Part shown: positions 1 through 34,153 of the stretch, piece by piece
How positions within the stretch are numbered: the first letter of the stretch is position 1
Layout: each line of letters begins with the position of its first letter
DNA from: a virus
Taxonomy: Duplodnaviria > Heunggongvirae > Uroviricota > Caudoviricetes
Length of the DNA: 34,153 bases
Strand: one strand, 5' to 3'
Virus record (IMG/VR): IMGVR_UViG_2874968258_000005
Made by a program: the position numbers and the translations under genes
The notes under the pieces: generated by a model
Told to the model about the DNA's origin: nothing
The model's input: only the letters and a program-made list of their open reading frames with translations
Database searches by the model: none

Positions 1-696
1 TCACTTCGGGTAAGGCTGAATCCTGAATAGCTTAGTATTTAGCCGCTTCCTTGCTCGCTTGTTCAGGAATCTGATGTAACGATATTGATTAAATTTGTGC
101 GCCACGGCCCGCTCCTTATTCGCTCGTAAATATTCGCCGCGCTTCCCTCCACGATTAATCGCATTCATCGTTATCTCGTGATACCACTCACCGTCCAGTT
201 CGTAGAATGTGCTTTCATGGCTGCCAATAAAATCAAAATTTGACGCCTGATACACAACACCTGCACGCCCGCAACGTTCGTCTGCAAAGGACTGAACCCA
301 CTCCACTGACGGATACAGTAACCTGATGGTTTTCAGCGCGTAGCTGATGGCCCGTGATTCAGAGTTGCGGGGCATGTCGTCGTGTAGCCACATGCGGTTC
401 AGTTCCATATAGCCCCGGTTATCCGTTTCAAGCACAACGCGACGCCCTGAGTTGGGGTTAAGGGCATATCCCCACTGAAGAACACCAACCAGATCACGTC
501 CACTGAATACGCCCAGATGCAACCAGGAGTTATTCACAAAACGGCGGGAATAATGCTTTGTCTGAATGATTGTGCGGGCCAGCCAGCAGGATATGGTTTC
601 AACGCGCAGCTCCCTTGAACCATAGCCGACAATCCGGCCTTCATACTCAATAACGCAGGGTTTTGTCAGAATGCGTGATTTCTTCTCTTTTCCCAC
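1..696 (-). CDS. mom: DNA modification protein Mom (adenine modification, anti-restriction)
   Basis: Last gene of the element, directly downstream of and overlapping com as in Mu. Track ORF 1..738 begins at TTG; an in-frame GTG at 696 gives a 231-aa product, the length I recall for Mu Mom. Stop TGA at 1..3. Confidence 0.75.
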
Positions 697-832
697 AATA
701 CAGCTCCGTGGGATGCTCCCGGGCACTCGATATGACAATGTAACGTTTACAGCGAGGACATTTGATTTCTATATGCTTAAAACCTCCTTTAAACAGCAAT
801 TTATTGCAATTTTTACAACGAACAGAGTCCAT
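647..832 (-). CDS. com: Com, zinc-finger translational activator of mom
   Basis: 61-aa product [14 protein letters not shown]...CPRCKR...[12 protein letters not shown] with a CxxC...CxxC zinc-finger pattern matching Mu Com. ATG at 832 preceded by GGGGGAA. 3' end overlaps the mom start region. Confidence 0.8.
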
Positions 833-906
833 AATTTCCCCCAGTGTAATAACAGGATATAGCTGCCCGGAGGGCTGGGGGTATTTAATCACACTTGATG
901 CAAACC

Positions 907-934
907 GACGATCGATATGATGCTATCGATCGTC
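907..934. promoter_or_regulatory. Inverted repeat carrying two GATC (Dam) sites upstream of com-mom; candidate methylation-sensitive regulatory site of the mom promoter
   Basis: GACGATCGATA-tgatgc-TATCGATCGTC: 11-bp perfect inverted arms, each with a GATC, about 75-100 bp upstream of the com start on the transcribed strand. Confidence 0.5.
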
Positions 935-956
935 ATAAACTATACAAACTGATTAT

Positions 957-1523
957 TTAATCGCCTGGTCTGAACGCTCTCACCTCGTCCAGTGTGGGCA
1001 ACAGAGAAAGTTGTTCTTTCATCTCCCGCTGACAGCGATAAATCTCATCGTTGCGCTCAACAATGGCCTGTATCATCGCTGTGGCCAGTTCCTCAAGTTC
1101 CTGCGTCGTCAGCTGCACCTGCTGATTATCCGCATCACTCCACGCCATATGTGTTTGTGCCGCGACAGATTTTGCCAGCATGACCACCGGGGACAGGCGG
1201 GCCACTGACGAGGCGTCAGCGTTCCACGTGCGACCGTTCCATTCAAACGTGAACGGCTTCGCCTCCTGTTCTGTGCGCCATGCTTCAATTCCCTGACGTC
1301 TGGCCTCTCTGGCCGCTTCCAGCATTTCTGGTGTCACAGTGAATGGGGCTATCTCACCCCATTTGCCGCTTTGCAGTTCCTGCCAGATTTGCTGACCCGT
1401 CGGAGCGACATCATCAGCGGTGGCTGTGTAGGGGACTGCCTGGTCCCTGTCGTCAAAAAAAACGTCACAGTCTACTGCGCCACTTTCGGTATAACGGGGA
1501 TTAATGATTTTTTTAATTTCCAC
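957..1523 (-). CDS. Tail fibre assembly protein (chaperone) for the second fibre
   Basis: Sits immediately after a fibre gene; size and position typical of Tfa. Start chosen at the in-frame GTG at 1523, preceded by GAGGAA and just after the fibre stop at 1534; the track ORF extends to 1583. Confidence 0.55.
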   Translation of the reverse strand: MEIKKIINPRYTESGAVDCDVFFDDRDQAVPYTATADDVAPTGQQIWQELQSGKWGEIAPFTVTPEMLEAAREARRQGIEAWRTEQEAKPFTFEWNGRTWNADASSVARLSPVVMLAKSVAAQTHMAWSDADNQQVQLTTQELEELATAMIQAIVERNDEIYRCQREMKEQLSLLPTLDEVRAFRPGD

Positions 1524-1533
1524 GGTGCATTCC

Positions 1534-2937
1534 TCACGATGTGCGAATAAAAAGCCCGGGCATTGCGCCAGAGACATGAGCATCCGGCACCCCGGACAGG
1601 GCGCAATATGACCCCGGTAATGAATGCTCTGAACATCCCGTAATGAAAAATTGTGGGGATGCTATATACGTTCCGGTGGGAGTACTGGGCACTGAAATCC
1701 CCACCGGTCCCAGTCGTGAGCCTCTGTATGACTGCCCCCTGACAAGTCTGATGACTTTATCACCGTCAGCTTCTCCCTGGTACGCAGCAATAATCAGCCC
1801 GCCAATGTCAGGGTCTCCCCATCTGTTGCGGACAGAGCTCGCCACGATTCTGTAAATAATATCTTCTGTGGTTATATCTATTTTCACCCAGCCAGTCAGT
1901 CTGGATATGGGCCAGTAGCAGTAGCGGGTGTGATAAATGGGGCCGTTAATGCCGTAAAAAGTAAGGGATTTGGCTCTGTACCGCGGTTCTGTTGTCTCAG
2001 GGCGTGCATCAGTCCACCGGATGCTGAGCACCCCTTCAAACCGTGTGTCGGGTATGATGCCCAGGCGGCCAGCAACGGAATACTCACCTGGCAGCGCATT
2101 CCTTACCCAGGCCAGGAAATCACTCTTAGTGTCAAAACGGATAACATCTTCAGGCAGAAAAGCACACCCAAAGCCGAATGCGCCGGGTATCGCCAGACGG
2201 CCTTTTGTCCGGTCGTAAATGTCGCTCTGTGCTTCCATCGTGGCTGCACTTTTCAGCCCCAGATTATCCCGGGACTTCTGTTGTGCCTTTTCGCCTGCTG
2301 CTGCGATTTCAGACAGATGGTTAGCCGTTTTCAGAGTGCCGGTCAGCGCAGCATCAATGTCATTTTTGGCCTGTTCTGCTGCGCGGGCATAACCTGCGGC
2401 TGCCTGTGCACGCTGACCGGATAAGACGGCGTTTTTCCCCGTGCTTTTCACGTCTTCCGCTGTGGCCTTTCTGTTCTCAGCTGTGACGGTTGCATCCTGT
2501 CGGGCTTTCTCCGCAAAACGTTGTGCATCATCACGGGCCGTTGCGGCTGCCGTCACATCCTGCGCCGTCTGCCGTGCGTTTCCGGCTGCGCTCCCGGCAC
2601 TCTGCTGCGCCTGTTGCGCCAGCTCTTCGAATTTCTTCAGGGATTCCGGACGCAGGTCAATATTAGTTGCGCCCAGAAAATCATTCAGCGAACCGTCCGT
2701 TGAATCTTCATAAACGCGGATGACACCGATTTCTGAAAGGCGCCGTGTGCTTTGTGTCAGGCGAACGCTGTACACACCCGGCAGAACGGGGAAGTCATAT
2801 TCCCCGTTCTGTGTGGTGACATGGCTGAAAACACTTTTCAGAATCCCTGCACGGTTGTGTATGGAGGTTAGTGTAATGGTTGCGCCGTCCAGCGGTTCTC
2901 CCGTGGGCGTTTTAATCACACCTTTAAGCTGCGGCAT
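1534..2937 (-). CDS. Tail fibre protein 2 (N-terminal prophage-tail-fibre-type domain, Ala/Gln-rich coiled-coil shaft, C-terminal beta-rich tip)
   Basis: 467 aa. N-terminus MPQLKGVIKTPTGEPLDGATITL..., a long AQQAQQSAGSAAGNARQTAQ shaft, and a Gly/Tyr/Trp-rich C-terminal domain. Followed by a Tfa gene. Confidence 0.65.
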   Translation of the reverse strand: MPQLKGVIKTPTGEPLDGATITLTSIHNRAGILKSVFSHVTTQNGEYDFPVLPGVYSVRLTQSTRRLSEIGVIRVYEDSTDGSLNDFLGATNIDLRPESLKKFEELAQQAQQSAGSAAGNARQTAQDVTAAATARDDAQRFAEKARQDATVTAENRKATAEDVKSTGKNAVLSGQRAQAAAGYARAAEQAKNDIDAALTGTLKTANHLSEIAAAGEKAQQKSRDNLGLKSAATMEAQSDIYDRTKGRLAIPGAFGFGCAFLPEDVIRFDTKSDFLAWVRNALPGEYSVAGRLGIIPDTRFEGVLSIRWTDARPETTEPRYRAKSLTFYGINGPIYHTRYCYWPISRLTGWVKIDITTEDIIYRIVASSVRNRWGDPDIGGLIIAAYQGEADGDKVIRLVRGQSYRGSRLGPVGISVPSTPTGTYIASPQFFITGCSEHSLPGSYCALSGVPDAHVSGAMPGLFIRTS

Positions 2938-3469
2938 CGGGACGCTCCGGCCAGTTGATGGCGTTATATGTGGCTTTATCTGTGATGGTGCTGAAATCCA
3001 TCGCCTGCAGCGATTTCGCGTAAATACGGTACGCTTTCAGTTTTTCCCGGTCTTCGTCGCTGATTAGCCCCAGCAGCAGGTCTTCTTCCCATTCCCCTGT
3101 CCGGGCACTGACCTGAGCCAGAAGGGCATCACGCTCATCTTCCGCTTTGAGTCTGTAGTCAAAGACAAATTCATCATTGCGGTAAAACCAGTAACCCGGC
3201 GCGGTAATGCGGCGGTTGGCGGTAATATCAGGAACTTCAATAACACTGGCGTTACGGGGTTCAATGCCTGTCACATCCTTACCGACCCACACCACGCGCC
3301 CGTCTCCGGTGTAAACCATTTTTATGGTGTCACTGGCAAAGTTCTTCTGTTCTTCATACCAGTTTTTGCCGTCTTCCGAAAAAAGCCAGGTGACATCATA
3401 CTGTTTTGTCAGCTGATATTGTTCCGCGGTTTTCGGATTACCTGCCGTAATATTTTTTAAATGCAACAT
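2924..3469 (-). CDS. Tail fibre assembly protein (Mu U / lambda Tfa-like) for the first fibre
   Basis: 181 aa directly after the S-like fibre. C-terminal region (...KLKAYRIYAKSLQAMDFSTITDKATYNAINWPERP) resembles the Tfa C-terminal domain. Confidence 0.7.
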   Translation of the reverse strand: MLHLKNITAGNPKTAEQYQLTKQYDVTWLFSEDGKNWYEEQKNFASDTIKMVYTGDGRVVWVGKDVTGIEPRNASVIEVPDITANRRITAPGYWFYRNDEFVFDYRLKAEDERDALLAQVSARTGEWEEDLLLGLISDEDREKLKAYRIYAKSLQAMDFSTITDKATYNAINWPERPDAAA

Positions 3470-3471
3470 TG

Positions 3472-4572
3472 TTAAATACTCGCTACGTTATACCAGGTGC
3501 CATTAATCAGTTTTTGCAGCGGTCGGTAATACACACCGTTGACGTTATCCGCTGAGTTACGGCCGGTATCCGATATCGATATCCCTGACAACCCGTGTCC
3601 CGAAGGTGAGCGAAACGTCCATGAAACGGTGTTGCTGCCAGGGTTGTAATACATTTCATAACCATACCGCACATCCTGTACCCCCTCAGTTCGATGTTTA
3701 TAGCGGGCATCGAAGTTTCCGTAGTCTGACGGTGTTACCCGTCCTGTAACGTTTACAGCTTTATTACTCTGGATACTGCCACTCTGAAAACGCAACACAT
3801 GCACGCTATTGGCATAAACATCCAGCAGGCCATCACCATTCTGTTTGAATCCGGTGTCATTATCACCAAGAACAATTGAATTCCCCCCCAGGGCGTTCTG
3901 AACGCCGATACCCAGCGCACCATTGACCTGCGAACCACCGCCAACAGACACTTTATGCGACATGGATATTTCACCCGTCCGCAGATTAATGGTGAACGGA
4001 CGCAGGGGGCCAATATCGCCATTCTCGCCCTGACCTTCACTGGTAGGGATAAGGTGCAGGCACTCTTCCGAACGACGAAAAATCAGGCCAAAAGCTTCGT
4101 TGAAAATCCTCAGCGCATTAACACCACGGATTTTCAGCTCTCCTGTCATCGTGCCGCCTGATTGTTTTATGACTTTCAGTGCATCTGCAAAATCTGTTGC
4201 ACTCTCTTTGCCGAGAATACCGCGCACAAAAGCACTGAGCGGTGTTAATGCCATTGTGTCTTTGCCGGTAAAATACGGGAATGTATTATTCTGACCGGTT
4301 AATCCGGCAATAGCACCGGCTGAACCACTGTTCGTAATAAACAGCTTTTTCAGCGCCGTCATAATCTGGTTGGTTGTGTTTTTATCCGGTTTGATATTTG
4401 CCTGCCGGAGTATTTCCAGTAATTCAGACTGAATAATATTAAACCAGTCCGGCCCCGGATAGGTGGGCGGAATACCGTTCCCGCCTTCGGTGAAATAAAG
4501 CGTTGTTTTGCTTAATTCTGCCGCGACAGGTGGCATTACCGGCACACCCGTCGGGTTATCCACATAAAACAT
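3472..4572 (-). CDS. Tail fibre protein 1 (Mu S-like, conserved N-terminal baseplate-attachment region)
   Basis: 366 aa. N-terminus MFYVDNPTGVPVMPPVA...YFTEGGNGIPPTYPGPDWFNIIQSEL is typical of Mu/P2-type fibre N-termini. Position is right after the baseplate genes. Confidence 0.7.
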   Translation of the reverse strand: MFYVDNPTGVPVMPPVAAELSKTTLYFTEGGNGIPPTYPGPDWFNIIQSELLEILRQANIKPDKNTTNQIMTALKKLFITNSGSAGAIAGLTGQNNTFPYFTGKDTMALTPLSAFVRGILGKESATDFADALKVIKQSGGTMTGELKIRGVNALRIFNEAFGLIFRRSEECLHLIPTSEGQGENGDIGPLRPFTINLRTGEISMSHKVSVGGGSQVNGALGIGVQNALGGNSIVLGDNDTGFKQNGDGLLDVYANSVHVLRFQSGSIQSNKAVNVTGRVTPSDYGNFDARYKHRTEGVQDVRYGYEMYYNPGSNTVSWTFRSPSGHGLSGISISDTGRNSADNVNGVYYRPLQKLINGTWYNVASI

Positions 4573-8257: not shown

Positions 8258-9531
8258 CAGTCGGTGATCTCCACAGGTTGCGTCGGCAGGATGAATGACG
8301 GATGACGCAGGCGGTTACGCTGCACGATTTCATCCCGTCGGCGTGTGTCACCATGCTCGCGCCATGCCAGCAATGCGGCAGAGGTGGTTGTGGTCAGCGT
8401 CACCTGCCGGGTTTCCGGCAGACGGGCGGCACGCTCGCGGGCATCCGTAATCACGGCCTGCCGTAAATCGCGCAGCGTTCGCCACAATGTCCGCTGGTTG
8501 TTTTCCACCGCCGCCACCGCCTGCTCATGCAGTTCAGCCGCCAGCGTGTCACCGGCAGATAACGCCGCATCACGGGTATCGAACGTCATCGAGGCCACGG
8601 CACTGGCCTGTCCCAGCAGGGCTCCCAGCACAACCACCTGGCGGAAGTCGTCAATGTTCTTTTGCAGGCTGTCAGATACCGGCTGATAATCCGGTGACAG
8701 CCCGATGGCAAAGCCGGGGTTGCCGTCTGCCACGCTGCCGGGCTTCACGGTGATATCTTCCGGCAGTGCGCCGGTGGCAATCTGCCTGGCACGTTCTCCG
8801 GCCCACTGGTTGCGTAATGTCGTGTAAACCGCCAGTGCTTCGGGTGGTTCCGTCACAAGGCCCGCAATATCTTCCACCCGTGCTGACAGCTCACTGACCA
8901 GACGCCCCGGTGTGGCAATGAGAGTTCCGGCCATCGCCTTAAAATGCTTCAGCCTGTCCATCCACTGATTCAGTGCTGCCGGTAACGTGGGCAGGTTAGC
9001 CACAAGGTTTTCCATATCGGCCAGAAAACTGTCGGCCATGTCACCCAGCCCGTCGAGTGCGCCGAACCAGTCGCCATCGTCAATGGCGGCTTTCACCGCA
9101 TCAATGCCTGTCAGCACTTCCTGCTGCGTGTTATCCGCCGCAGACGGGAACAGGCGCTCGCCTGCCTCAAACACTTCAAAGGTGACATACGCAATGCCGT
9201 CTTCCTCCGTGCTGAGGCGATGGGTGACCTTGCCAACCTGTACGGTCTGTATCCCGAACCACGGGTGGACAAGCTCGCCGGGGCCGGGGGTATTGAGCGC
9301 ATCTAAAAGGGCGTTTAAATCATCCCGGAAGTTTTTACCTGGCAGCTTTGCGTTAATCTGCTGTTGCCCCGGAACGGCCCCGTTATCATCCGTCCAGGCG
9401 GTTTCACGCCGGGGATAAGCACGGGGAATGGCACGACGACCACCGGTGCCCTCCGTATCCACCAGAAAGAAGGGGACGCCACGAAACGAGGCGTCGCGCA
9501 GCCCGTCCCATTTACCGTTGCTCGTTGTCAT
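8257..9531 (-). CDS. Mu N-like protein (DNA circularisation protein family), tail/baseplate associated
   Basis: 424 aa directly after the tape measure gene, as for Mu gene N (gp43). Confidence 0.55.
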   Translation of the reverse strand: MTTSNGKWDGLRDASFRGVPFFLVDTEGTGGRRAIPRAYPRRETAWTDDNGAVPGQQQINAKLPGKNFRDDLNALLDALNTPGPGELVHPWFGIQTVQVGKVTHRLSTEEDGIAYVTFEVFEAGERLFPSAADNTQQEVLTGIDAVKAAIDDGDWFGALDGLGDMADSFLADMENLVANLPTLPAALNQWMDRLKHFKAMAGTLIATPGRLVSELSARVEDIAGLVTEPPEALAVYTTLRNQWAGERARQIATGALPEDITVKPGSVADGNPGFAIGLSPDYQPVSDSLQKNIDDFRQVVVLGALLGQASAVASMTFDTRDAALSAGDTLAAELHEQAVAAVENNQRTLWRTLRDLRQAVITDARERAARLPETRQVTLTTTTSAALLAWREHGDTRRRDEIVQRNRLRHPSFILPTQPVEITD

Positions 9532-25255: not shown

Positions 25256-25281
25256 AAAAAAAGCCGGATTTACCGGCTTCA
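25256..25281 (-). terminator. Intrinsic terminator after mor (candidate end of the early/middle transcript)
   Basis: Same GAAGCCGG-TAAAT-CCGGCTTC + U7 element as at 17704-17729, about 5 nt after the mor stop. Confidence 0.6.
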
Positions 25282-25285
25282 TTGA

Positions 25286-25735
25286 TTAAGGACGTCGTGG
25301 CGGACGACGAACGGGGTGAGGCAGGTTCGGGGAGTGGTAAAACAAATCCGGCTGGTATTTATTACACTCCAGACGCCGCATCCGCTTGATGGCCTTGTAG
25401 ACGGTTTTATACGTCACCCCGTAACGCTGAACCAGTTCAGGAATATTATGGCCGTTAAAATCACGCCAGATACGCATATCCCGGACAAGATTCTCCAGAA
25501 TATTCCCCCTCGGAACATAAACCTGCATCCCGCCGATATAGCGACAAATCGCCACAACCAGCTCAAGGGAATGGGCAGGGTCTGCGCCAATCCGGGCCAG
25601 CTCTTTACGCAGCAGTGCGTTCAGTTCAGAAAGTAACGCCGGATAAGCCGTGTTTTCCTGGTAATCGTTAAGGTATTCCAGAACGCTGTCGTCCCGGAAG
25701 TCTTCGAATAAATCCTGCTCTTTCATCTGTTTCAT
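25286..25735 (-). CDS. mor: Mor/C-family transcription activator (Mor-like)
   Basis: 149 aa with ...YPALLSELNALLRKELARIGADPAHSLELVVAICRYIGGMQVYVPRG...WRDFNGHNIPELVQRYGVTYKTVYKAIKRMRR, matching the Mor/C family as I recall it. Coupled to gemA upstream, as in Mu. Confidence 0.75.
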   Translation of the reverse strand: MKQMKEQDLFEDFRDDSVLEYLNDYQENTAYPALLSELNALLRKELARIGADPAHSLELVVAICRYIGGMQVYVPRGNILENLVRDMRIWRDFNGHNIPELVQRYGVTYKTVYKAIKRMRRLECNKYQPDLFYHSPNLPHPVRRPPRRP

Positions 25736-26283
25736 ACAGCAATTCTCCCGCTGTTTCGTGCGCGGGCATATGCACTGGTCAGTGCATCATAGCCGCGCAG
25801 CTTCCGCCCGGTTTCGCTCACAGGTAAAGGCACACCATGTCGGGCAAAGGCTTCCCGGATGCAGCGCATATGCCACTGTTTGAGCGTTTCGAGCACAACA
25901 TGCAACGATTCCCCGTGACACCAGGCCAGCGTGGAAACACCCTGACCGCCATTACGTCTGGCCGTCAGGCGTTCAACGTATTTGTCCAGCGCAGCGTCGC
26001 TGATATCGGAGACGAAACCATCAAGGAACATCTGCTGCCAGATTTTATAAATCTTCTCGCGCGGTGTGACATGCCCCTTAAAGCGACGGCGGGGATGTTT
26101 TTTCTGCTTCTTAAAACCGCGCTCTTTCATGGCATCGAGCACACGTTCCAGTTGTGCAACGGACAGCTCGCGGCAACTGGTTTTGCCCGTGTGCTGCACC
26201 AGAAAGGCGCGGTAAGTGTCATCGTCGAGTTGTAGATCACGACGGGCGACATGAATTAATTTAATCAGGGATGTGCGATTCAT
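25732..26283 (-). CDS. gemA: GemA-like regulatory protein (DUF1018)
   Basis: Start at the internal ATG giving 183 aa (MNRTSLIKLIHVARRDLQLDDDTYRAFL...). Directly upstream of mor. Confidence 0.7.
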   Translation of the reverse strand: MNRTSLIKLIHVARRDLQLDDDTYRAFLVQHTGKTSCRELSVAQLERVLDAMKERGFKKQKKHPRRRFKGHVTPREKIYKIWQQMFLDGFVSDISDAALDKYVERLTARRNGGQGVSTLAWCHGESLHVVLETLKQWHMRCIREAFARHGVPLPVSETGRKLRGYDALTSAYARARNSGRIAV

Positions 26284-26290
26284 TATCGTA

Positions 26291-26324
26291 CCTCCAGAAA
26301 AGGGGGCGGTGCGGCAACACCGCC
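26291..26324 (-). promoter_or_regulatory. Hairpin plus U-rich tract in the gemA leader (attenuator/terminator-like)
   Basis: Minus-strand GGCGGTG-uugccg-CACCGCC followed by CCCCUUUUCUGGAGG, the last part being the gemA RBS. Confidence 0.35.
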
Positions 26325-26356
26325 AGAATCCACTCACTAAACAGAGGAAACTTTTT

Positions 26357-26623
26357 ATGAAAAACAGTGAACAGCCTTATGATGTTGCAGGGTATGTCAT
26401 TGCCTCAAGGTTGCTGATACTCCTTGTCAGAAAGGGGCTAATTACCGCAGAAGAAGGCAAAACGATCCTCGAAGCCGCAGCAAGCGGAGCGGCAGAGGCT
26501 CCGGCATTGAGAACAACGAATAATCCCATCCTGCAAATATCACAGCTAATCACTGATACCATCAGTTTGTTAGACCAAGATTCTGATGAATATCAAAAGC
26601 CTCAGCCATCTGAGCATCCGTAA
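26357..26623 (+). CDS. Candidate opposite-strand small gene (89 aa) inside the early operon
   Basis: ATG at 26357 preceded by AGAGGAAA at 7-nt spacing. Occupies an otherwise non-coding gap, convergent with the minus-strand gene ending at 26562. Confidence 0.3.
   Translation: MKNSEQPYDVAGYVIASRLLILLVRKGLITAEEGKTILEAAASGAAEAPALRTTNNPILQISQLITDTISLLDQDSDEYQKPQPSEHP
26377..26562 (-). CDS. Candidate small hydrophobic protein (61 aa), translationally coupled to the upstream gene
   Basis: ATG overlaps the upstream stop (TGATG). Hydrophobic stretch GLFVVLNAGASAAPLAAASRIVL. Competes with the + strand ORF at 26357..26623. Confidence 0.3.
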   Translation of the reverse strand: MVSVISCDICRMGLFVVLNAGASAAPLAAASRIVLPSSAVISPFLTRSISNLEAMTYPATS

Positions 26624-26876
26624 GAATATCTTTATTTGATAGTCCCAGCCTGCGACGAATGTATTCCTCGCGGGCTGCTTCATTTTGTAGCGCCACGGCA
26701 GCTTCCACCTGGTTCATTTCACGGTTGATAATGCTCCGGACTTCTCTGGCGGTGAGGTCATGCTCAATACCATATTTAACAATATCATGCATACGTTCCA
26801 GCATCCTTAAATTAGCCATGACGTCATCAATATTAACTGGTGTGAATTTCATTTCTTTATTCTCTGGTTTATTCAT
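26562..26876 (-). CDS. Hypothetical early protein (104 aa, charged and helical)
   Basis: Start at the internal ATG with an AGAGG RBS. Low-GC segment. Confidence 0.5.
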   Translation of the reverse strand: MNKPENKEMKFTPVNIDDVMANLRMLERMHDIVKYGIEHDLTAREVRSIINREMNQVEAAVALQNEAAREEYIRRRLGLSNKDILTDAQMAEAFDIHQNLGLTN

Positions 26877-26905
26877 TTCGTAATACCTCTTCGCAATAAA
26901 AGATT

Positions 26906-27052
26906 TCATTGGGATAACGTTTTTGTATGCGCTCCATCACCTGCATACATGTCTGCTCTGTGGGCCAGATTTTTTTCCGTTACCGGAATGGCATCGCAGG
27001 CATCATTTCCGCAGGTGCCAACCAGCAGGACAAAGCCAGTTGACTTAATCAT
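26906..27052 (-). CDS. Candidate small protein (48 aa, Cys-containing)
   Basis: ATG at 27052 with an AGGAA RBS; overlaps the upstream gene by 8 nt. Confidence 0.3.
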   Translation of the reverse strand: MIKSTGFVLLVGTCGNDACDAIPVTEKNLAHRADMYAGDGAHTKTLSQ

Positions 27053-27584
27053 GCTCGCTGATTTCCTGTGTTTCCGCCGGAACCGGTGAATAATCAAGAA
27101 TGAGATAGCGCAGGACGTGGTCGGTGATATTCCAGCCACTGGAGCCACAAATAAAACGACCCAGCCGGATATCGATATAAGCCATCACAAAACGGGGCAT
27201 TCCCTGTTTACACATCTCGTCATCCACTTCAGCAACGATGTAAACCGACTCGCAGGTCAGTACGCCTGTCGCAAATTCTTTTGCCAGTGCCGGAATGGCA
27301 TTGCCTTCCAGCCAGGGCAAAGAGCGGCGGAACGTGCACCATTGCGCACCATCAACATCGGGGTGCTCCGTTGAATTTCGCCCGGCAGGCGGCTCTGCCC
27401 GGGAGCGCGGAACGTCGTAAAAGCCGTTCAGTTCAGTCAGCACTCCGGCATCAACCGCATCACGCAGGAAATACACCATTGCAGAGACCGGCATCCTCAT
27501 TTTGTCCGCCAGAACACCACAGGTCAGACGTCCGTAAGCCCGTAATAATGTGCTGACACCGTTCAGAACTTTTGCATCAATCAC
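27045..27584 (-). CDS. Hypothetical early-region protein (179 aa)
   Basis: ORF packed tightly between neighbours on the operon strand. Confidence 0.5.
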   Translation of the reverse strand: MIDAKVLNGVSTLLRAYGRLTCGVLADKMRMPVSAMVYFLRDAVDAGVLTELNGFYDVPRSRAEPPAGRNSTEHPDVDGAQWCTFRRSLPWLEGNAIPALAKEFATGVLTCESVYIVAEVDDEMCKQGMPRFVMAYIDIRLGRFICGSSGWNITDHVLRYLILDYSPVPAETQEISEHD

Positions 27585-27587
27585 CGG

Positions 27588-28136
27588 TTATTCCTCCGTC
27601 AGTGCCACAAATTCAGAATGTTTAATGCGCTGGCATTCGGCAGGAACCGGTCCCTTAACCTCACCATCCAGCAGGCACACCTCAAACAAAATGCCGAATC
27701 CGTCACGGCTGTGGTGCATCGTCCAGACTGATTTGAGATCAAACATGTTGGGTACAACATCAACCCCGAGTTCATTACACAACCAGACCGGGAATGTGGG
27801 ATATTTCCGGAGTTGCTCTTCATGTTCCTGAATAAGCGTCGCATTGTTTCGGCCTTCCGGTGTTGTTATATCCGGTACAACGCCATAAAACTGAAATCCA
27901 CCAATAAACAGTCCGTCTGATTTACCACGCCATAATTCCGGCGCTAATTGATTCATCCAGATACATTCAACCCGTTCATACCCTCTGTTACTGACAAGGG
28001 AAACACCGTCTGCGCCAAACGCACGCTGCAATGAGCAGATGATTTTGTCACGCTTAACAGAAACATCTTTCAGCCAGCGAATCGTATAACCGTTAGCGGC
28101 TGCGTCACTCAGTTTAAAATAAGCATATGCTTTCAT
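27588..28136 (-). CDS. Hypothetical early-region protein (182 aa)
   Basis: Start at the ATG preceded by GAGGAA (MKAYAYFKLSD...). Directly downstream of gam. Confidence 0.5.
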   Translation of the reverse strand: MKAYAYFKLSDAAANGYTIRWLKDVSVKRDKIICSLQRAFGADGVSLVSNRGYERVECIWMNQLAPELWRGKSDGLFIGGFQFYGVVPDITTPEGRNNATLIQEHEEQLRKYPTFPVWLCNELGVDVVPNMFDLKSVWTMHHSRDGFGILFEVCLLDGEVKGPVPAECQRIKHSEFVALTEE

Positions 28137-28233
28137 ATTCATTTCCTCTGGTCCTGATTCAGGCGCGAGCAATCCCCTGACGCATCGCGCCATAATTAAA
28201 AGAAAGTGAATTAATTAAATATTCGTCGTGGTA

Positions 28234-28758
28234 TTAAATACCGGCATCCTGTTCAAACGGAATAATAGAAAAATCTTCAATGCCTGATTTAACTGTAATT
28301 CCGGCGACACCTGCGACTGCTTTCGGCTCCAGTAAAATCGCTTCCTTGTTGATTTCCTGTTTCGTGCGAATAAAGCGTTGAAGGCCAAGACGCTCCAGTG
28401 TTTCCATCACCGCATCCACACCGCGAATACTTACTGATGGTGGGCGCTGACGCCATGACACATCACCGGTTACCAGGTTTGCCGTCTTCACCTTGCCGCC
28501 GTTCGTCAGTTCGTCACGGTTCGCTTCACACCATCCCTGAACGCCTTTTGAAAGGGTTTCGATACTGGTTTTAAGCGGTGCAATCTGTGAGGCGTATTTC
28601 TCCGTAATCTCAGCGATAGCGTCATTCATTTCCGTTTCAAGTCGTGCTGCTTCGCGTTGCAGGTCCCCAATCCGGCGGATATCACATACCACGGCATCGC
28701 GGGATTGCGGAACATAAGCCGCTGCGGCGTTCCTGATTCGTTTTGCGGGTTTAGCCAT
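28234..28758 (-). CDS. gam: Host-nuclease inhibitor protein Gam (Mu Gam family, DNA-end binding)
   Basis: 174 aa, the same length as Mu Gam, with MAKPAKRIRNAAAAYVPQSRDAV...WCEANRDELTNGGKVKTANLVTGDVSWRQRPPSVSIRG... Confidence 0.85.
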   Translation of the reverse strand: MAKPAKRIRNAAAAYVPQSRDAVVCDIRRIGDLQREAARLETEMNDAIAEITEKYASQIAPLKTSIETLSKGVQGWCEANRDELTNGGKVKTANLVTGDVSWRQRPPSVSIRGVDAVMETLERLGLQRFIRTKQEINKEAILLEPKAVAGVAGITVKSGIEDFSIIPFEQDAGI

Positions 28759-28776
28759 AAATAAAGCTCCTGTTAA

Positions 28777-29064
28777 TTAATATTCACTGTATACAATGCC
28801 GGATACAGCACGATTGCTTAATTCCATCTTTTGGGCTATCACATGAATAGCCAGCCCTTCTTTATAAAGTTCACGGCATAAATATTTGTCGTGCTCACTG
28901 ACCTGGTATGCACACAACGATATTCCGTGCCTTCTGGCATGTGCCTGTAGGGCGGTTGGGGCAACTTTCAGTTTTTTCGCCATTTCCTCGACGGTCATTT
29001 TTCCGACACTGGCTTCGATAAATTCCCGGTCTTCGCGTGACCAGCGTTTACGATTACACGTCAT
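28777..29064 (-). CDS. Small DNA-binding protein with two helix-turn-helix-like segments
   Basis: ...RKRWSREDREFIEASVGKMTVEEMAKKLKVAPTALQAHARRHGI... AT-rich segment. Start taken at the internal ATG; the track ORF begins at 29076 (GTG). Confidence 0.5.
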   Translation of the reverse strand: MTCNRKRWSREDREFIEASVGKMTVEEMAKKLKVAPTALQAHARRHGISLCAYQVSEHDKYLCRELYKEGLAIHVIAQKMELSNRAVSGIVYSEY

Positions 29065-29076
29065 TCCGGTCACCAC

Positions 29077-29496
29077 TCAGTACAACAGAGGCTCGCGCAG
29101 TGATGCCGGAATATGCCGCAGCGATAACTGAACCGCTTTCAGGACAAGCGAGGAATAACAGCAGCGCGCCCAGCCTTTTGCCATTAACCGGTAATCGCGC
29201 CAGATACGCTGCCACATTTCACGGGCTTTCGGGTCTGACGCGCAGATGTATTCGCGGTCCATGACGTATTCCCATAAATCCACATTGAAGGCATTGCCAA
29301 ACGTAATGGCGCGGAATACCGCCTCTCCGCAATAACGCGCACAAATGCTGTAATGGTCAAATGCAATCAGGTAAGTCTTTTCGCCATACCCCTCAACTTC
29401 GCGCGCACAAATAAATTCGCGCAAGTCTCCACCATTGTTATTACGCTCTTTAATCCGAATTAATGCCCGGATTTCATTTCGGATTTTGACGTTCAT
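29077..29496 (-). CDS. Hypothetical early protein (139 aa)
   Basis: ATG with an AAAGGAA RBS. AT-rich segment between kil-like and gam. Confidence 0.45.
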   Translation of the reverse strand: MNVKIRNEIRALIRIKERNNNGGDLREFICAREVEGYGEKTYLIAFDHYSICARYCGEAVFRAITFGNAFNVDLWEYVMDREYICASDPKAREMWQRIWRDYRLMAKGWARCCYSSLVLKAVQLSLRHIPASLREPLLY

Positions 29497-29510
29497 TGTC
29501 AGCGTTCCTT

Positions 29511-29774
29511 TCAGTGGCATGTTTTTTCAACAGCCATTTCAGTGACACGGCCACCGGTGATGACACTATCGTTTTTCAAAATCTCGATAGCTTCATGGGC
29601 TGACTCATTAATTATTTTCTGGCTTTTATTAAGCACCAGTAACGCCACCATGCCAGCAAGTGTACCCTCATCACCGTCCAGTTCCGCACTACCGTCCACC
29701 GCAATGCTGGTGCGCAAATTCAGTCCTTTAATTCCAGATACTGTATTTTTAATTTCAATAATTACTTTTGCCAT
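29511..29774 (-). CDS. Hypothetical early protein (87 aa)
   Basis: ATG preceded by GAGGA (MAKVIIEIKN...). Confidence 0.45.
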   Translation of the reverse strand: MAKVIIEIKNTVSGIKGLNLRTSIAVDGSAELDGDEGTLAGMVALLVLNKSQKIINESAHEAIEILKNDSVITGGRVTEMAVEKTCH

Positions 29775-29806
29775 TTTGTTATTCCTCACAAATAAATAAG
29801 CCGTTA

Positions 29807-30034
29807 TTAACGCCAGATAATCTGGCAGCCATTAAGGCGGGCCGTCCATACTGAACGGGCAACCCCTGATTTATGCTCCATAATCCTGACAGCGTTTCTG
29901 ACCAGCTCCGGTGGTGGGCAGGTGATTTCAAGTACCGGACGCGCCACGCCGAGATATGATTCATTTACGTGACTCCCGTGCGCCTGTAACCAGTTCTGCG
30001 CATCCGTTGCCATTTTTATATTTCGTGACATCAT
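29807..30034 (-). CDS. Kil-like small protein (first gene after B)
   Basis: 75 aa in the position of Mu kil (74 aa). Assignment is by synteny and size only. Confidence 0.4.
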
Positions 30035-33425: not shown

Positions 33426-33589
33426 CTTTCCTTTAACCTACAAAATTACCCGCGCGGATATCCGGTCGGATATCCGTATGGATAAAGATTAAGATACCAA
33501 AGATTCCTTGTAAAGGGTTCTTTGGTGTTTTTATGGTTTATTTTTTAATTTCATTATTTATCAATGAATTAGATAGGAAGGAACCAAGA
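33426..33589. promoter_or_regulatory. Divergent operator/promoter region between repressor and ner (early promoter, operators, possible transposition enhancer)
   Basis: Tandem 10-bp perfect palindromes CGGATATCCG at about 33455-33464 and 33467-33476, plus a partial third copy. The remainder is AT-rich. Confidence 0.5.
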
Positions 33590-34153
33590 ATGAGAAAAGC
33601 ACCCCAAGGTTCTTTTCCTGCCGATGGAAAAGAACCGATTATCGAAAGAATCTTTAGGTTAGTAGAACGATACCCTTCAAGAAATGCGGCTGCTCGGGCA
33701 TGGGGGATCAATGAAGGCACTTTAAAAAATTATTACAACAGGCGGGATTACGCACCGATACCACGCCCGCATCAGTTAAAAAAGATAGCAGAAAGCGAAA
33801 ATGTTACCTTGGAATGGCTCATGACGGGAGAGGGTGATGTTGAACTAAAAGATTCCAAAGAACCCAAAAAAGAGAATGCGGATAATGTTGATGCTCAAAT
33901 TCTAATGTTCTTGTCATTTCTTAAACCACAAGAAAAACAACAAGTAGCTGATGTTCTTGGGAGAAAAGGAGCGGAGCAATTACTCATTCTTCTGGATGAG
34001 CACATCCAAGAGTTGCACGCTCTAGTTGGAGTTCGTAGAGCCATAGCGTTAAGCCTTGGTAATTTGCCAGACGAAAAGGTTAGAGAGATTTACGCGTTGT
34101 CCGAAGCTAAGGGCGATCACTTAAATCTACCTCAGAAAGCAGCCAGCGCATAA
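33590..34153 (+). CDS. Prophage repressor (c-equivalent), XRE-type helix-turn-helix
   Basis: Start at the ATG preceded by AGGAAGGAA (the track ORF begins at 33533). HTH ...NAAARAWGINEGTLKNYYNRR... and the ...VTLEWLMTGEG... motif typical of XRE/CI-type repressors. AT-rich. Divergent from ner. Confidence 0.65.
   Translation: MRKAPQGSFPADGKEPIIERIFRLVERYPSRNAAARAWGINEGTLKNYYNRRDYAPIPRPHQLKKIAESENVTLEWLMTGEGDVELKDSKEPKKENADNVDAQILMFLSFLKPQEKQQVADVLGRKGAEQLLILLDEHIQELHALVGVRRAIALSLGNLPDEKVREIYALSEAKGDHLNLPQKAASA

Follow-up and report, generated by a model that had tools for sequence, protein, structure and literature searches.

The GATC palindrome ahead of com-mom in a Mu-like Escherichia coli prophage aligns with the Dam/OxyR control site of Mu and lacks its third GATC

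The mom operon of bacteriophage Mu is the textbook example of layered control over a toxic anti-restriction function, the layers being Dam/OxyR, an activator and Com. The present analysis concerns the corresponding com-mom region at one end of IMG/VR virus record IMGVR_UViG_2874968258_000005 (Caudoviricetes), a DNA stretch of 34,153 nucleotides that is called the window throughout. Methylation of the three GATC sites of the Mu operon is reported to block the binding of OxyR and thereby to permit transcription of mom (Sun and Hattman 1996, cited in PMC7549136; PMC3378877), and digestion of the Mu mom promoter (Pmom) with PvuI yields an 18-bp fragment (PMC3378877). At the level of translation, Com binds a hexaloop that has a closing C-G pair and displays CC(N)2-3GAG. 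This target is adjacent to the translation-inhibition hairpin (TIS) that holds the GUG start, and in Mu its native form is the 19-mer GAAUGCCUGCGAGCAUCCC (PMC6483171). Among the C-dependent late promoters of Mu, Pmom carries a TTAT-N6-ATAA dyad, and an element of the ATAACCCC type is present in all four, placed ahead of a weak -10 (PMC4461284). GATC sites are placed inside OxyR contact elements at agn43 (flu) as well (PMC13337833, PMC4872104), where the operator lies downstream of the promoter and gives a heritable ON/OFF state of a host adhesin, whereas the element described here lies upstream of a phage late operon. In gtr and opvAB of Salmonella, GATC pairs are embedded in OxyR half-sites and their methylation blocks OxyR (PMC2909390, PMC4856963); these loci hold four GATC in two pairs, with alternative activating and repressing OxyR sites, and no sequence homology to the present element was found.

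The prophage is a Mu-like, transposable one of E. coli, and the region under study is its right-end com-mom operon. The window is 100% identical to chromosomal DNA of VL40, an E. coli strain from human stool in Thailand, and its orientation is the reverse complement of the prophage. As judged by alignment, the GATC palindrome ahead of com is the counterpart of the Dam/OxyR control site of Mu. Taken together, the comparisons and the predicted folds make it probable that this is an intact Mu-type operon with translational control by Com, an OxyR/Dam operator and activation by the phage. It is a known kind of system, and no new kind was revealed; what goes beyond the textbook picture is only a common two-GATC promoter variant, a replaced activator site and core promoter, and a phage backbone without C and gin.

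The initial annotation had reported an 11-bp perfect inverted repeat with one GATC in each arm at 907-934, and this was confirmed. In alignments with Mu (AF083977, the reference for all comparisons), SfMu and about 57 other loci, the repeat fell on the first two GATC sites, I and II, of the mom operator in Mu (Mu, ATATAGAAAACGACGATCGAATCAATTAAATCGATCGGTAATACAGATCGATTATGCCCC; window, GTATAGTTTATGACGATCGATAGCATCATATCGATCGTCGGTTTGCATCAAGTGTGATT), and the palindrome aligned with the Dam-sensitive Mu promoter region base for base. The contrast drawn in that annotation, between two GATC sites in a palindrome here and three dispersed sites in Mu, held in its first half only. Counting back from the com ATG, the Mu sites start at 109, 91 and 78 nt, and sites I and II, likewise 18 bp apart, stand in a palindrome (CGATCGA-AT / A-ATCGATCG) that is an imperfect form of the one seen here; the Mu palindrome consists of seven paired bases, a mismatch and one more pair, against the perfect 11 bp of the window. 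The true differences from the Mu operator were the perfected palindrome and the loss of site III, where GATC is replaced by CATC (900-897). The GATC pair is also about 10 bp nearer to the com ATG than that of Mu (-99/-81 versus -109/-91). In other respects the layout was that of Mu, as well as of SfMu and D108, namely ATAG and the spacing of GATC I and II, a 50-nt overlap of the two genes, a GUG within the TIS, and the Com motif.

The comparison covered 60 com-mom loci, which were the window, Mu and SfMu, 12 loci of E. coli genomes or plasmids, 43 from IMG/VR, and two from other enterobacterial genomes (Scandinavium and one unclassified enterobacterium). Scanning for Mom gave three loci in genome contigs and 44 in IMG/VR. 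Two main promoter classes were recognised, for which the names A and B are our own. Class A, the Mu type (26 loci, 12 distinct sequences), has GATC starts at -109, -91 and -78 from the com ATG, and its upstream gene is gin in five annotated loci (Mu, SfMu, N1286, PEC422). Class B, the window type (29 loci, 19 distinct sequences), has GATC starts at -98/-80 or -99/-81 and CATC at the third position, with various tail-fibre or chaperone genes upstream. Lineages L018, L059 and L060 showed an 18 + 13 bp GATC pattern, the first GATC site was displaced in L058, and L017 (Scandinavium) had two GATC sites with CTAT where the third would be. A third GATC, 13 bp downstream of site II, was absent from the window, from all 29 class-B loci and from L017. 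The 18-bp spacing between sites I and II was kept in 59 of the 60 loci, and the string TATAG-N7-CGATCGA-N10-TCGATCG was invariant across both promoter classes.

Class-B cassettes with differing upstream genes become homologous from about TATAG onward, which we take to delimit the functional unit on its left. Of the 121 upstream columns, 48 were variable among the 19 distinct sequences of class B. The two longest invariant runs were the two arms themselves, 11 and 9 nt in length (TATCGATCGTC, CGATCGATA), with TTAAATA, GCCCTC and TATAG coming next. Variation was concentrated in the first two loop bases, the interval from CATC to TGTG, and the presumed spacer/-10 region. The chance that 20 chosen columns would all be invariant was about 1e-5, in a test that was picked after the data had been seen. 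The coordinates of the features are collected in Table 1.

Table 1. Features of the com-mom region and the adjoining tail-fibre genes, in window coordinates.
Feature	Position	Strand	Sequence or description
mom coding sequence	1-696	-	GTG 696-694 to stop 3-1; 231 aa
com coding sequence	647-832	-	ATG 832 to stop 649-647; 61-aa Cys4 zinc ribbon, translational activator
TIS	691-713	-	stem UCCCACGG / UUGUGGGA; in minimum-energy and centroid folds of window and Mu
Predicted Com-binding hairpin	710-728	-	GAGUGCCCGGGAGCAUCCC; 4-bp stem, hexaloop, C-G closing pair, CC(N)2-3GAG motif
com core promoter and leader	833-876	-	includes com Shine-Dalgarno GGGGGA (842-837); most variable class-B stretch
Candidate class-B activator box	877-888	-	TTAAATACCCCC; at the aligned position of the Mu C site
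Degraded proximal OxyR dimer site	898-912	-	ATCGTCGGTTTGCAT; 5/10; overlaps GATC II and former site III
11-bp perfect inverted repeat	907-934		907-917 GACGATCGATA, 924-934 TATCGATCGTC; 11/11 complementary, 6-nt spacer
GATC site II	913-910	as read on -	18 bp from site I
GATC site I	931-928	as read on -	in distal arm
Candidate distal OxyR dimer site	929-943	-	ATAGTTTATGACGAT; 8/10 to ATAGnTnnnAnCTAT; overlaps GATC I
Second tail-fibre set	2937-957		with DUF4376 chaperone; 86-88% DNA identity to phiP27 and Rac-SA53 side-tail-fibre genes
First tail-fibre set	4572-2936		S/U-like

The 34-kb window contained only three perfect inverted repeats with arms of 11 bp or more and a spacer no longer than 20 nt, when about 0.17 were expected (estimated as 34153 x 21 / 4^11). 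GATC itself was three-fold depleted, with 43 sites versus 121 +/- 11 expected from dinucleotide-preserving shuffles. Two cautions apply to these figures. Forty-three GATC sites still give about 0.9 neighbouring pairs within 18 bp by chance, so close spacing alone is not significant, and six of the 11 bp in each arm form the self-complementary word CGATCG, two copies of which pair automatically. Because both points weaken what can be drawn from the window by itself, the case for a function of the repeat is made by comparison with the other loci. No further copy of an arm, or of the whole promoter box, was found in the window. The other two perfect short-loop repeats of 11-12 bp were located at 11352-11380, in the gap before the tape-measure gene, and at 33608-33636, in the early control region. 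A direct repeat, GATTAAATA as read on the minus strand, flanks the operator at 882-890 and 954-962, 72 bp apart, and the copy further upstream shares bases with the chaperone stop codon.

The operator was then compared with the OxyR dimer-site consensus ATAGnTnnnAnCTAT quoted in PMC2909390, whose last element is printed as CATAT and was scored here as CTAT (ATAG-N7-CTAT); the scores are register-specific and anchored on agn43 and Mu. The distal site of the window (943-929) scored 8/10, and just 0.01% of window 15-mers attained 8/10 or better. Distal and proximal scores were both 7/10 in Mu and both 8/10 in agn43; those of L018 were 8/10 and 7/10 and those of L059 were 8/10 and 6/10, and the proximal site scored 7/10 in L060 and 9/10 in L017. 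By these matches the operator keeps its distal half in full, with degradation of the proximal one (912-898 in the window). The operator of agn43 in E. coli K-12 (cryptic prophage CP4-44; L064, 296-366) was collinear with the mom operators, its register being ATAG-N7-CGATC, then CGATCG 19 bp on and CGATCG another 13 bp on, and its sites II and III hold the exact arm words TATCGATCGT and CGATCGATA. The operator of the window carries one GATC fewer than that of agn43 (two versus three), and its second dimer site is weak where those of agn43 score equally. Common ancestry of the agn43 and mom operators, rather than convergence, is a possibility that this collinearity, with its shared words of 9-10 nt, raises.

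In the mechanism that we propose from these alignments, the inverted repeat would be the part of the mom operator that is conserved on the promoter-distal side. When both GATC sites are unmethylated, OxyR of the host would bind and repress transcription, and Dam methylation of sites I and II would prevent this binding. The change of the third GATC to CATC would remove that Dam target; the same substitution was chosen elsewhere to abolish methylation without altering the OxyR consensus (PMC2909390). As the proximal dimer site is weaker, repression may be weaker too or may need only two methyl groups for its relief. Transcriptional control by Dam and OxyR, as a second layer, is thus plausible, and we favour it slightly.

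The first layer, Com-dependent translation of mom, is very probably in place, as indicated by the genes and by the predicted folds. Mom aligned with Mu Mom over 231 of 231 residues without gaps at 96% identity (tblastn, BLASTP), and matched Pfam PF25680 (Mom; E 1.4e-75) and PDB 8bv8 (E 5e-153). By homology it is an enzyme of the GNAT fold, using Gly-tRNA(Gly) as the source of glycine that it adds to the N6 of adenine in DNA. Seven residues are reported as essential or important in the 241-aa numbering, H58, Y59, R111, S124, D149, R151 and Y159 (PMC13219725), and all were retained in the window as H48, Y49, R101, S114, D139, R141 and Y149, the numbering being shifted by 10. The near-identity to Mu Mom argues for the modification activity: Mom would convert adenines of the phage DNA to N6-carbamoylmethyl-adenine using Gly-tRNA(Gly), and the modified, packaged DNA would resist restriction. 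No inactivating change was found in mom, which was of full length with its catalytic residues present. The start at GTG 696 proposed in the initial annotation coincides with the annotated GTG start of Mu_53 and with the call of the Prokaryotic Genome Annotation Pipeline (PGAP) for VL40, and GGAG lies 7 nt upstream of it, as in Mu. Mu and most relatives also have a longer 241-aa form of Mom that begins at an ATG, for which the equivalent codon in the window is GTG 726; loss of the 10 extra N-terminal residues is tolerated (PMC13219725). The zinc-finger nature of Com and the overlap of its 3' end with the start of mom, both put forward earlier, were borne out as well. Com carries Cys6, Cys9, Cys25 and Cys28 in a Cys4 ribbon that matched Pfam Zn_ribbon_Com (E 2.5e-7), it was 71% identical to Mu Com with all four cysteines aligned, and it is annotated as a Com family protein in VL40. 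The overlap of 50 nt (647-696) equals that of Mu.

The expected stem-loop structure around the start of mom was predicted in the form known from Mu, with both the TIS and the Com target conserved. The TIS of the predicted fold buries half of the mom Shine-Dalgarno (GGAG, 707-704) together with the GUG start (696-694). Its stem sequences are those of Mu and only the loop differs (AGCUGUA in the window versus AGAAACA). In the Com hairpin, three of the 19 positions were changed from Mu, one turning a stem A-U into G-U and two falling on free N positions of the loop, and the hairpin was kept in 15 loci. At energies of about -10.5 to -10.8 kcal/mol, the class-B consensus, Mu and the window shared one local fold of two hairpins, and the stems were invariant in 14 intact loci, the sole exception being a decayed copy on plasmid pEc-CD45-2. 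The z-score of the global fold over 111 nt around the mom start was not significant, and it is the two-hairpin model alone that is supported, through its identity with Mu. According to this model, the GUG of mom and half of its Shine-Dalgarno would be locked in a hairpin, and Com, translated from the same mRNA, would bind the adjacent CC-N2/3-GAG hexaloop and open the mom start. The decayed copy (L010, NZ_CP182221.1) is a class-B cassette beside insertion sequence elements; com and the operator are undamaged there, and mom is truncated, with GTA in place of the GTG start. The operon of the present prophage shows which controls persist as the cassette passes among Mu-like phages: the ATAG element with the two upstream GATC sites is kept, as are both RNA hairpins, and the core promoter, activator site and third GATC are exchangeable. 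The point is a modest comparative one, and class B offers a natural two-GATC variant for asking how many methylation sites OxyR control needs.

The earlier statement that mom of Mu is controlled by Dam and Com named two layers that both stand, and it omitted the activator C, which is also needed. The C-binding dyad in Pmom, which we take to be TTATGCCCCAATAA, is consistent with the promoter oligonucleotides. In the window, the C dyad, the T6 run and the TAAGAT -10 of Mu were replaced by sequence beginning GTGATTAAATACCCCCAGCCCTCCGGGC; the C-binding dyad was absent from the aligned position, which reads GTGATTAAATACCCCC and has only a ATACCCCC resemblance. No C gene was found in the window by tblastn, or by phmmer without speed filters against all six-frame open reading frames. 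The only Mor/C-family protein encoded in the window (25286-25735) was 61% identical to Mor and 32% to C, and a second class-B prophage (L065), with different tail fibres, has the same Mor-only backbone. The presence of a single gene of this family suggests that the phage uses a one-activator cascade, in which late activation would come from the Mor homologue or from another phage factor. For this third layer, the assignment of any specific activator is tentative and of low confidence.

The candidate activator box TTAAATACCCCC contains TTAAATA, the third-longest invariant run of class B. The octamer AATACCCC occurred in three copies on the coding (minus) strand, against 0.35 expected, at 885 upstream of com, at 9294 inside the N homologue, and at 17854 in the intergenic gap of the F and I head genes. 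It resembles the ATAACCCC element of the C-dependent late promoters of Mu and may be a late-promoter box. We regard these features as weak evidence that the com-mom operon is late and still dependent on an activator here. Plus-strand copies were also observed at 14132 and 17743. The Mor-type site AAGCCGGTAAATCCGGCTT was present at 25261 and 17709 and not upstream of com, with which it has only TAAAT in common. In both places it is followed by T7, which gives an identical 19-mer after mor (25261-25279) and before the protease (I) homologue (17709-17727), in a terminator-like arrangement that recurs in the second prophage, L065; the copy after mor corresponds to AAGCCGGTTAATCCGGC of Mu, which lies under the annotated middle promoter and terminator of Mu. 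As for the core promoter, the -10 candidates TATATC (861-856) and TATTAC (851-846) were rejected as poorly conserved or too near the Shine-Dalgarno, and a search of 560-1020 against Rfam at a permissive threshold gave no match. A CCCCC box (875-887) is complementary to the Shine-Dalgarno region of com (GGGGG, 832-844). This pairing appeared in the minimum-energy folds of read-through RNA of three class-B loci and not in that of Mu, and, if formed as predicted, it could silence com on read-through transcripts. Inspection by eye for covariation of the CCCCC box and the Shine-Dalgarno in the divergent loci L011 and L029 showed changes that were not compensatory.

Several observations weigh against an operon that keeps all layers of Mu-type control. 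The class-B sequences are all closely related, and their conservation is therefore in part due to recent common descent. The proximal dimer site of class B scored 5/10, compared with 6-9/10 in the three-GATC lineages and agn43, so that an OxyR tetramer site may be lacking in its full form. With the generic consensus of 37 bp for OxyR, the window gave 12/20, a value reached in about 5% of random 171-nt stretches of the window; Mu in the same register also gave 12/20, and the scan has low discriminating power. The phage lacks C, which is strictly required by Mu Pmom. One of the three coding-strand copies of AATACCCC is inside a coding region, and the activator box differs between prophages, being TAAATACCCC in one and TAAATATCCCC or TAAATCCCCC in the second class-B prophage. 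No recognisable -10/-35 or transcription start was detected upstream of com in a sigma-70 scan of 600-1100, which is uninformative here because it also misses the experimentally known Mu Pmom.

The weak proximal OxyR site makes a vestigial operator the most serious rival. On this account com-mom of class B would be Dam-independent and run by a phage activator or by read-through, plus Com. The loss of the third GATC from every class-B locus and the replacement of the core promoter agree with it, as does the position of com, only 124 nt after a late tail-fibre chaperone gene on the same strand. However, the arms and TATAG are the most conserved parts within class B while their neighbours vary, which points to ongoing selection, and, whichever of three different genes lies upstream in a prophage, the cassette edge falls exactly at TATAG. 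In addition, L017 with its two GATC sites has CTAT, the OxyR consensus, at the position of site III and reaches 9/10, which indicates that two-site operators are compatible with OxyR sites. We consider a vestigial operator unlikely for these reasons. A separate and improbable reading is that the cassette has been rewired and would no longer have a C-dependent promoter with three GATC sites. It would be driven by the single Mor-type activator of the phage or another factor recognising the TAAAT..CCCC box, and gated by an operator that combines two GATC sites, a single strong OxyR dimer site and the perfected palindrome. If it were so, an agn43-like heritable ON/OFF switch in lysogens, or a site for a different methylation-sensitive repressor, would be conceivable, and the CCCCC pairing would limit com translation to transcripts from the proper promoter.

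Two further accounts concern the repeat itself. It might act as an RNA hairpin that terminates or processes the late tail-fibre transcript from upstream, with the GATC sequences incidental. It begins 22 nt past the upstream gene's stop codon, has a folding energy of -17.4 kcal/mol (z = -4.1), and forms in the predicted folds of read-through RNA of three class-B loci. There is, however, no U-run after the repeat (GGUUUGCAUC), and the terminator scan of the minus strand was empty. The stem of Mu and the other lineages is only 7-8 bp with mismatches, whereas the GATC cores and their spacing are retained; changes in the outer arms were uncompensated (L006, GGCG...; L011 and L029, AACG...); and what precedes this sequence is gin in Mu, against tail-fibre genes in the present prophage. 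A role as an RNA hairpin is accordingly very unlikely. We give equally little credence to the palindrome as an operator of another symmetric DNA-binding protein of phage or host, methylation-sensitive or not. Such a protein would account for the perfection of the class-B palindrome to 11 bp, past the shared cores, for a variable loop between invariant arms as expected of a dimer site, and for a repeat centre that is not the canonical ATAG-N7-CTAT dyad of OxyR. On the other side, the arm sequence has no second copy in the window, the arms equal known OxyR-bound GATC sites of agn43 word for word, and six of the 11 arm positions are symmetric merely through the self-complementarity of CGATCG. The counterpart of the Mu Dam/OxyR site, within a Mu-type operon, is the reading that we retain.

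The element as a whole was a mosaic relative to Mu. At the DNA level, the kil-gam region (25370-30034) was about 90% identical to Mu and com-mom 88%, and gemA and mor were about 73% identical, whereas most structural proteins of head and tail were just 28-50% identical at the protein level. The high values of com-mom and kil-gam beside those of the structural proteins point to modular exchange of a com-mom cassette among Mu-like phages. Ahead of com, two tandem sets of tail-fibre and chaperone genes are carried on the same strand (957-4572). Unlike Mu, which has gin and the G segment upstream and possesses the C gene, this phage is without them; neither gin nor an invertible G segment was present in the window. 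Window position 1 is the final base of the mom stop codon, and in VL40 the host DNA starts about 114 bp beyond it, within the type VI secretion system gene vgrG. Near the ner homologue, three overlapping imperfect palindromes on CGGATATCCG were observed at 33446-33485, which are probably the early operator region.

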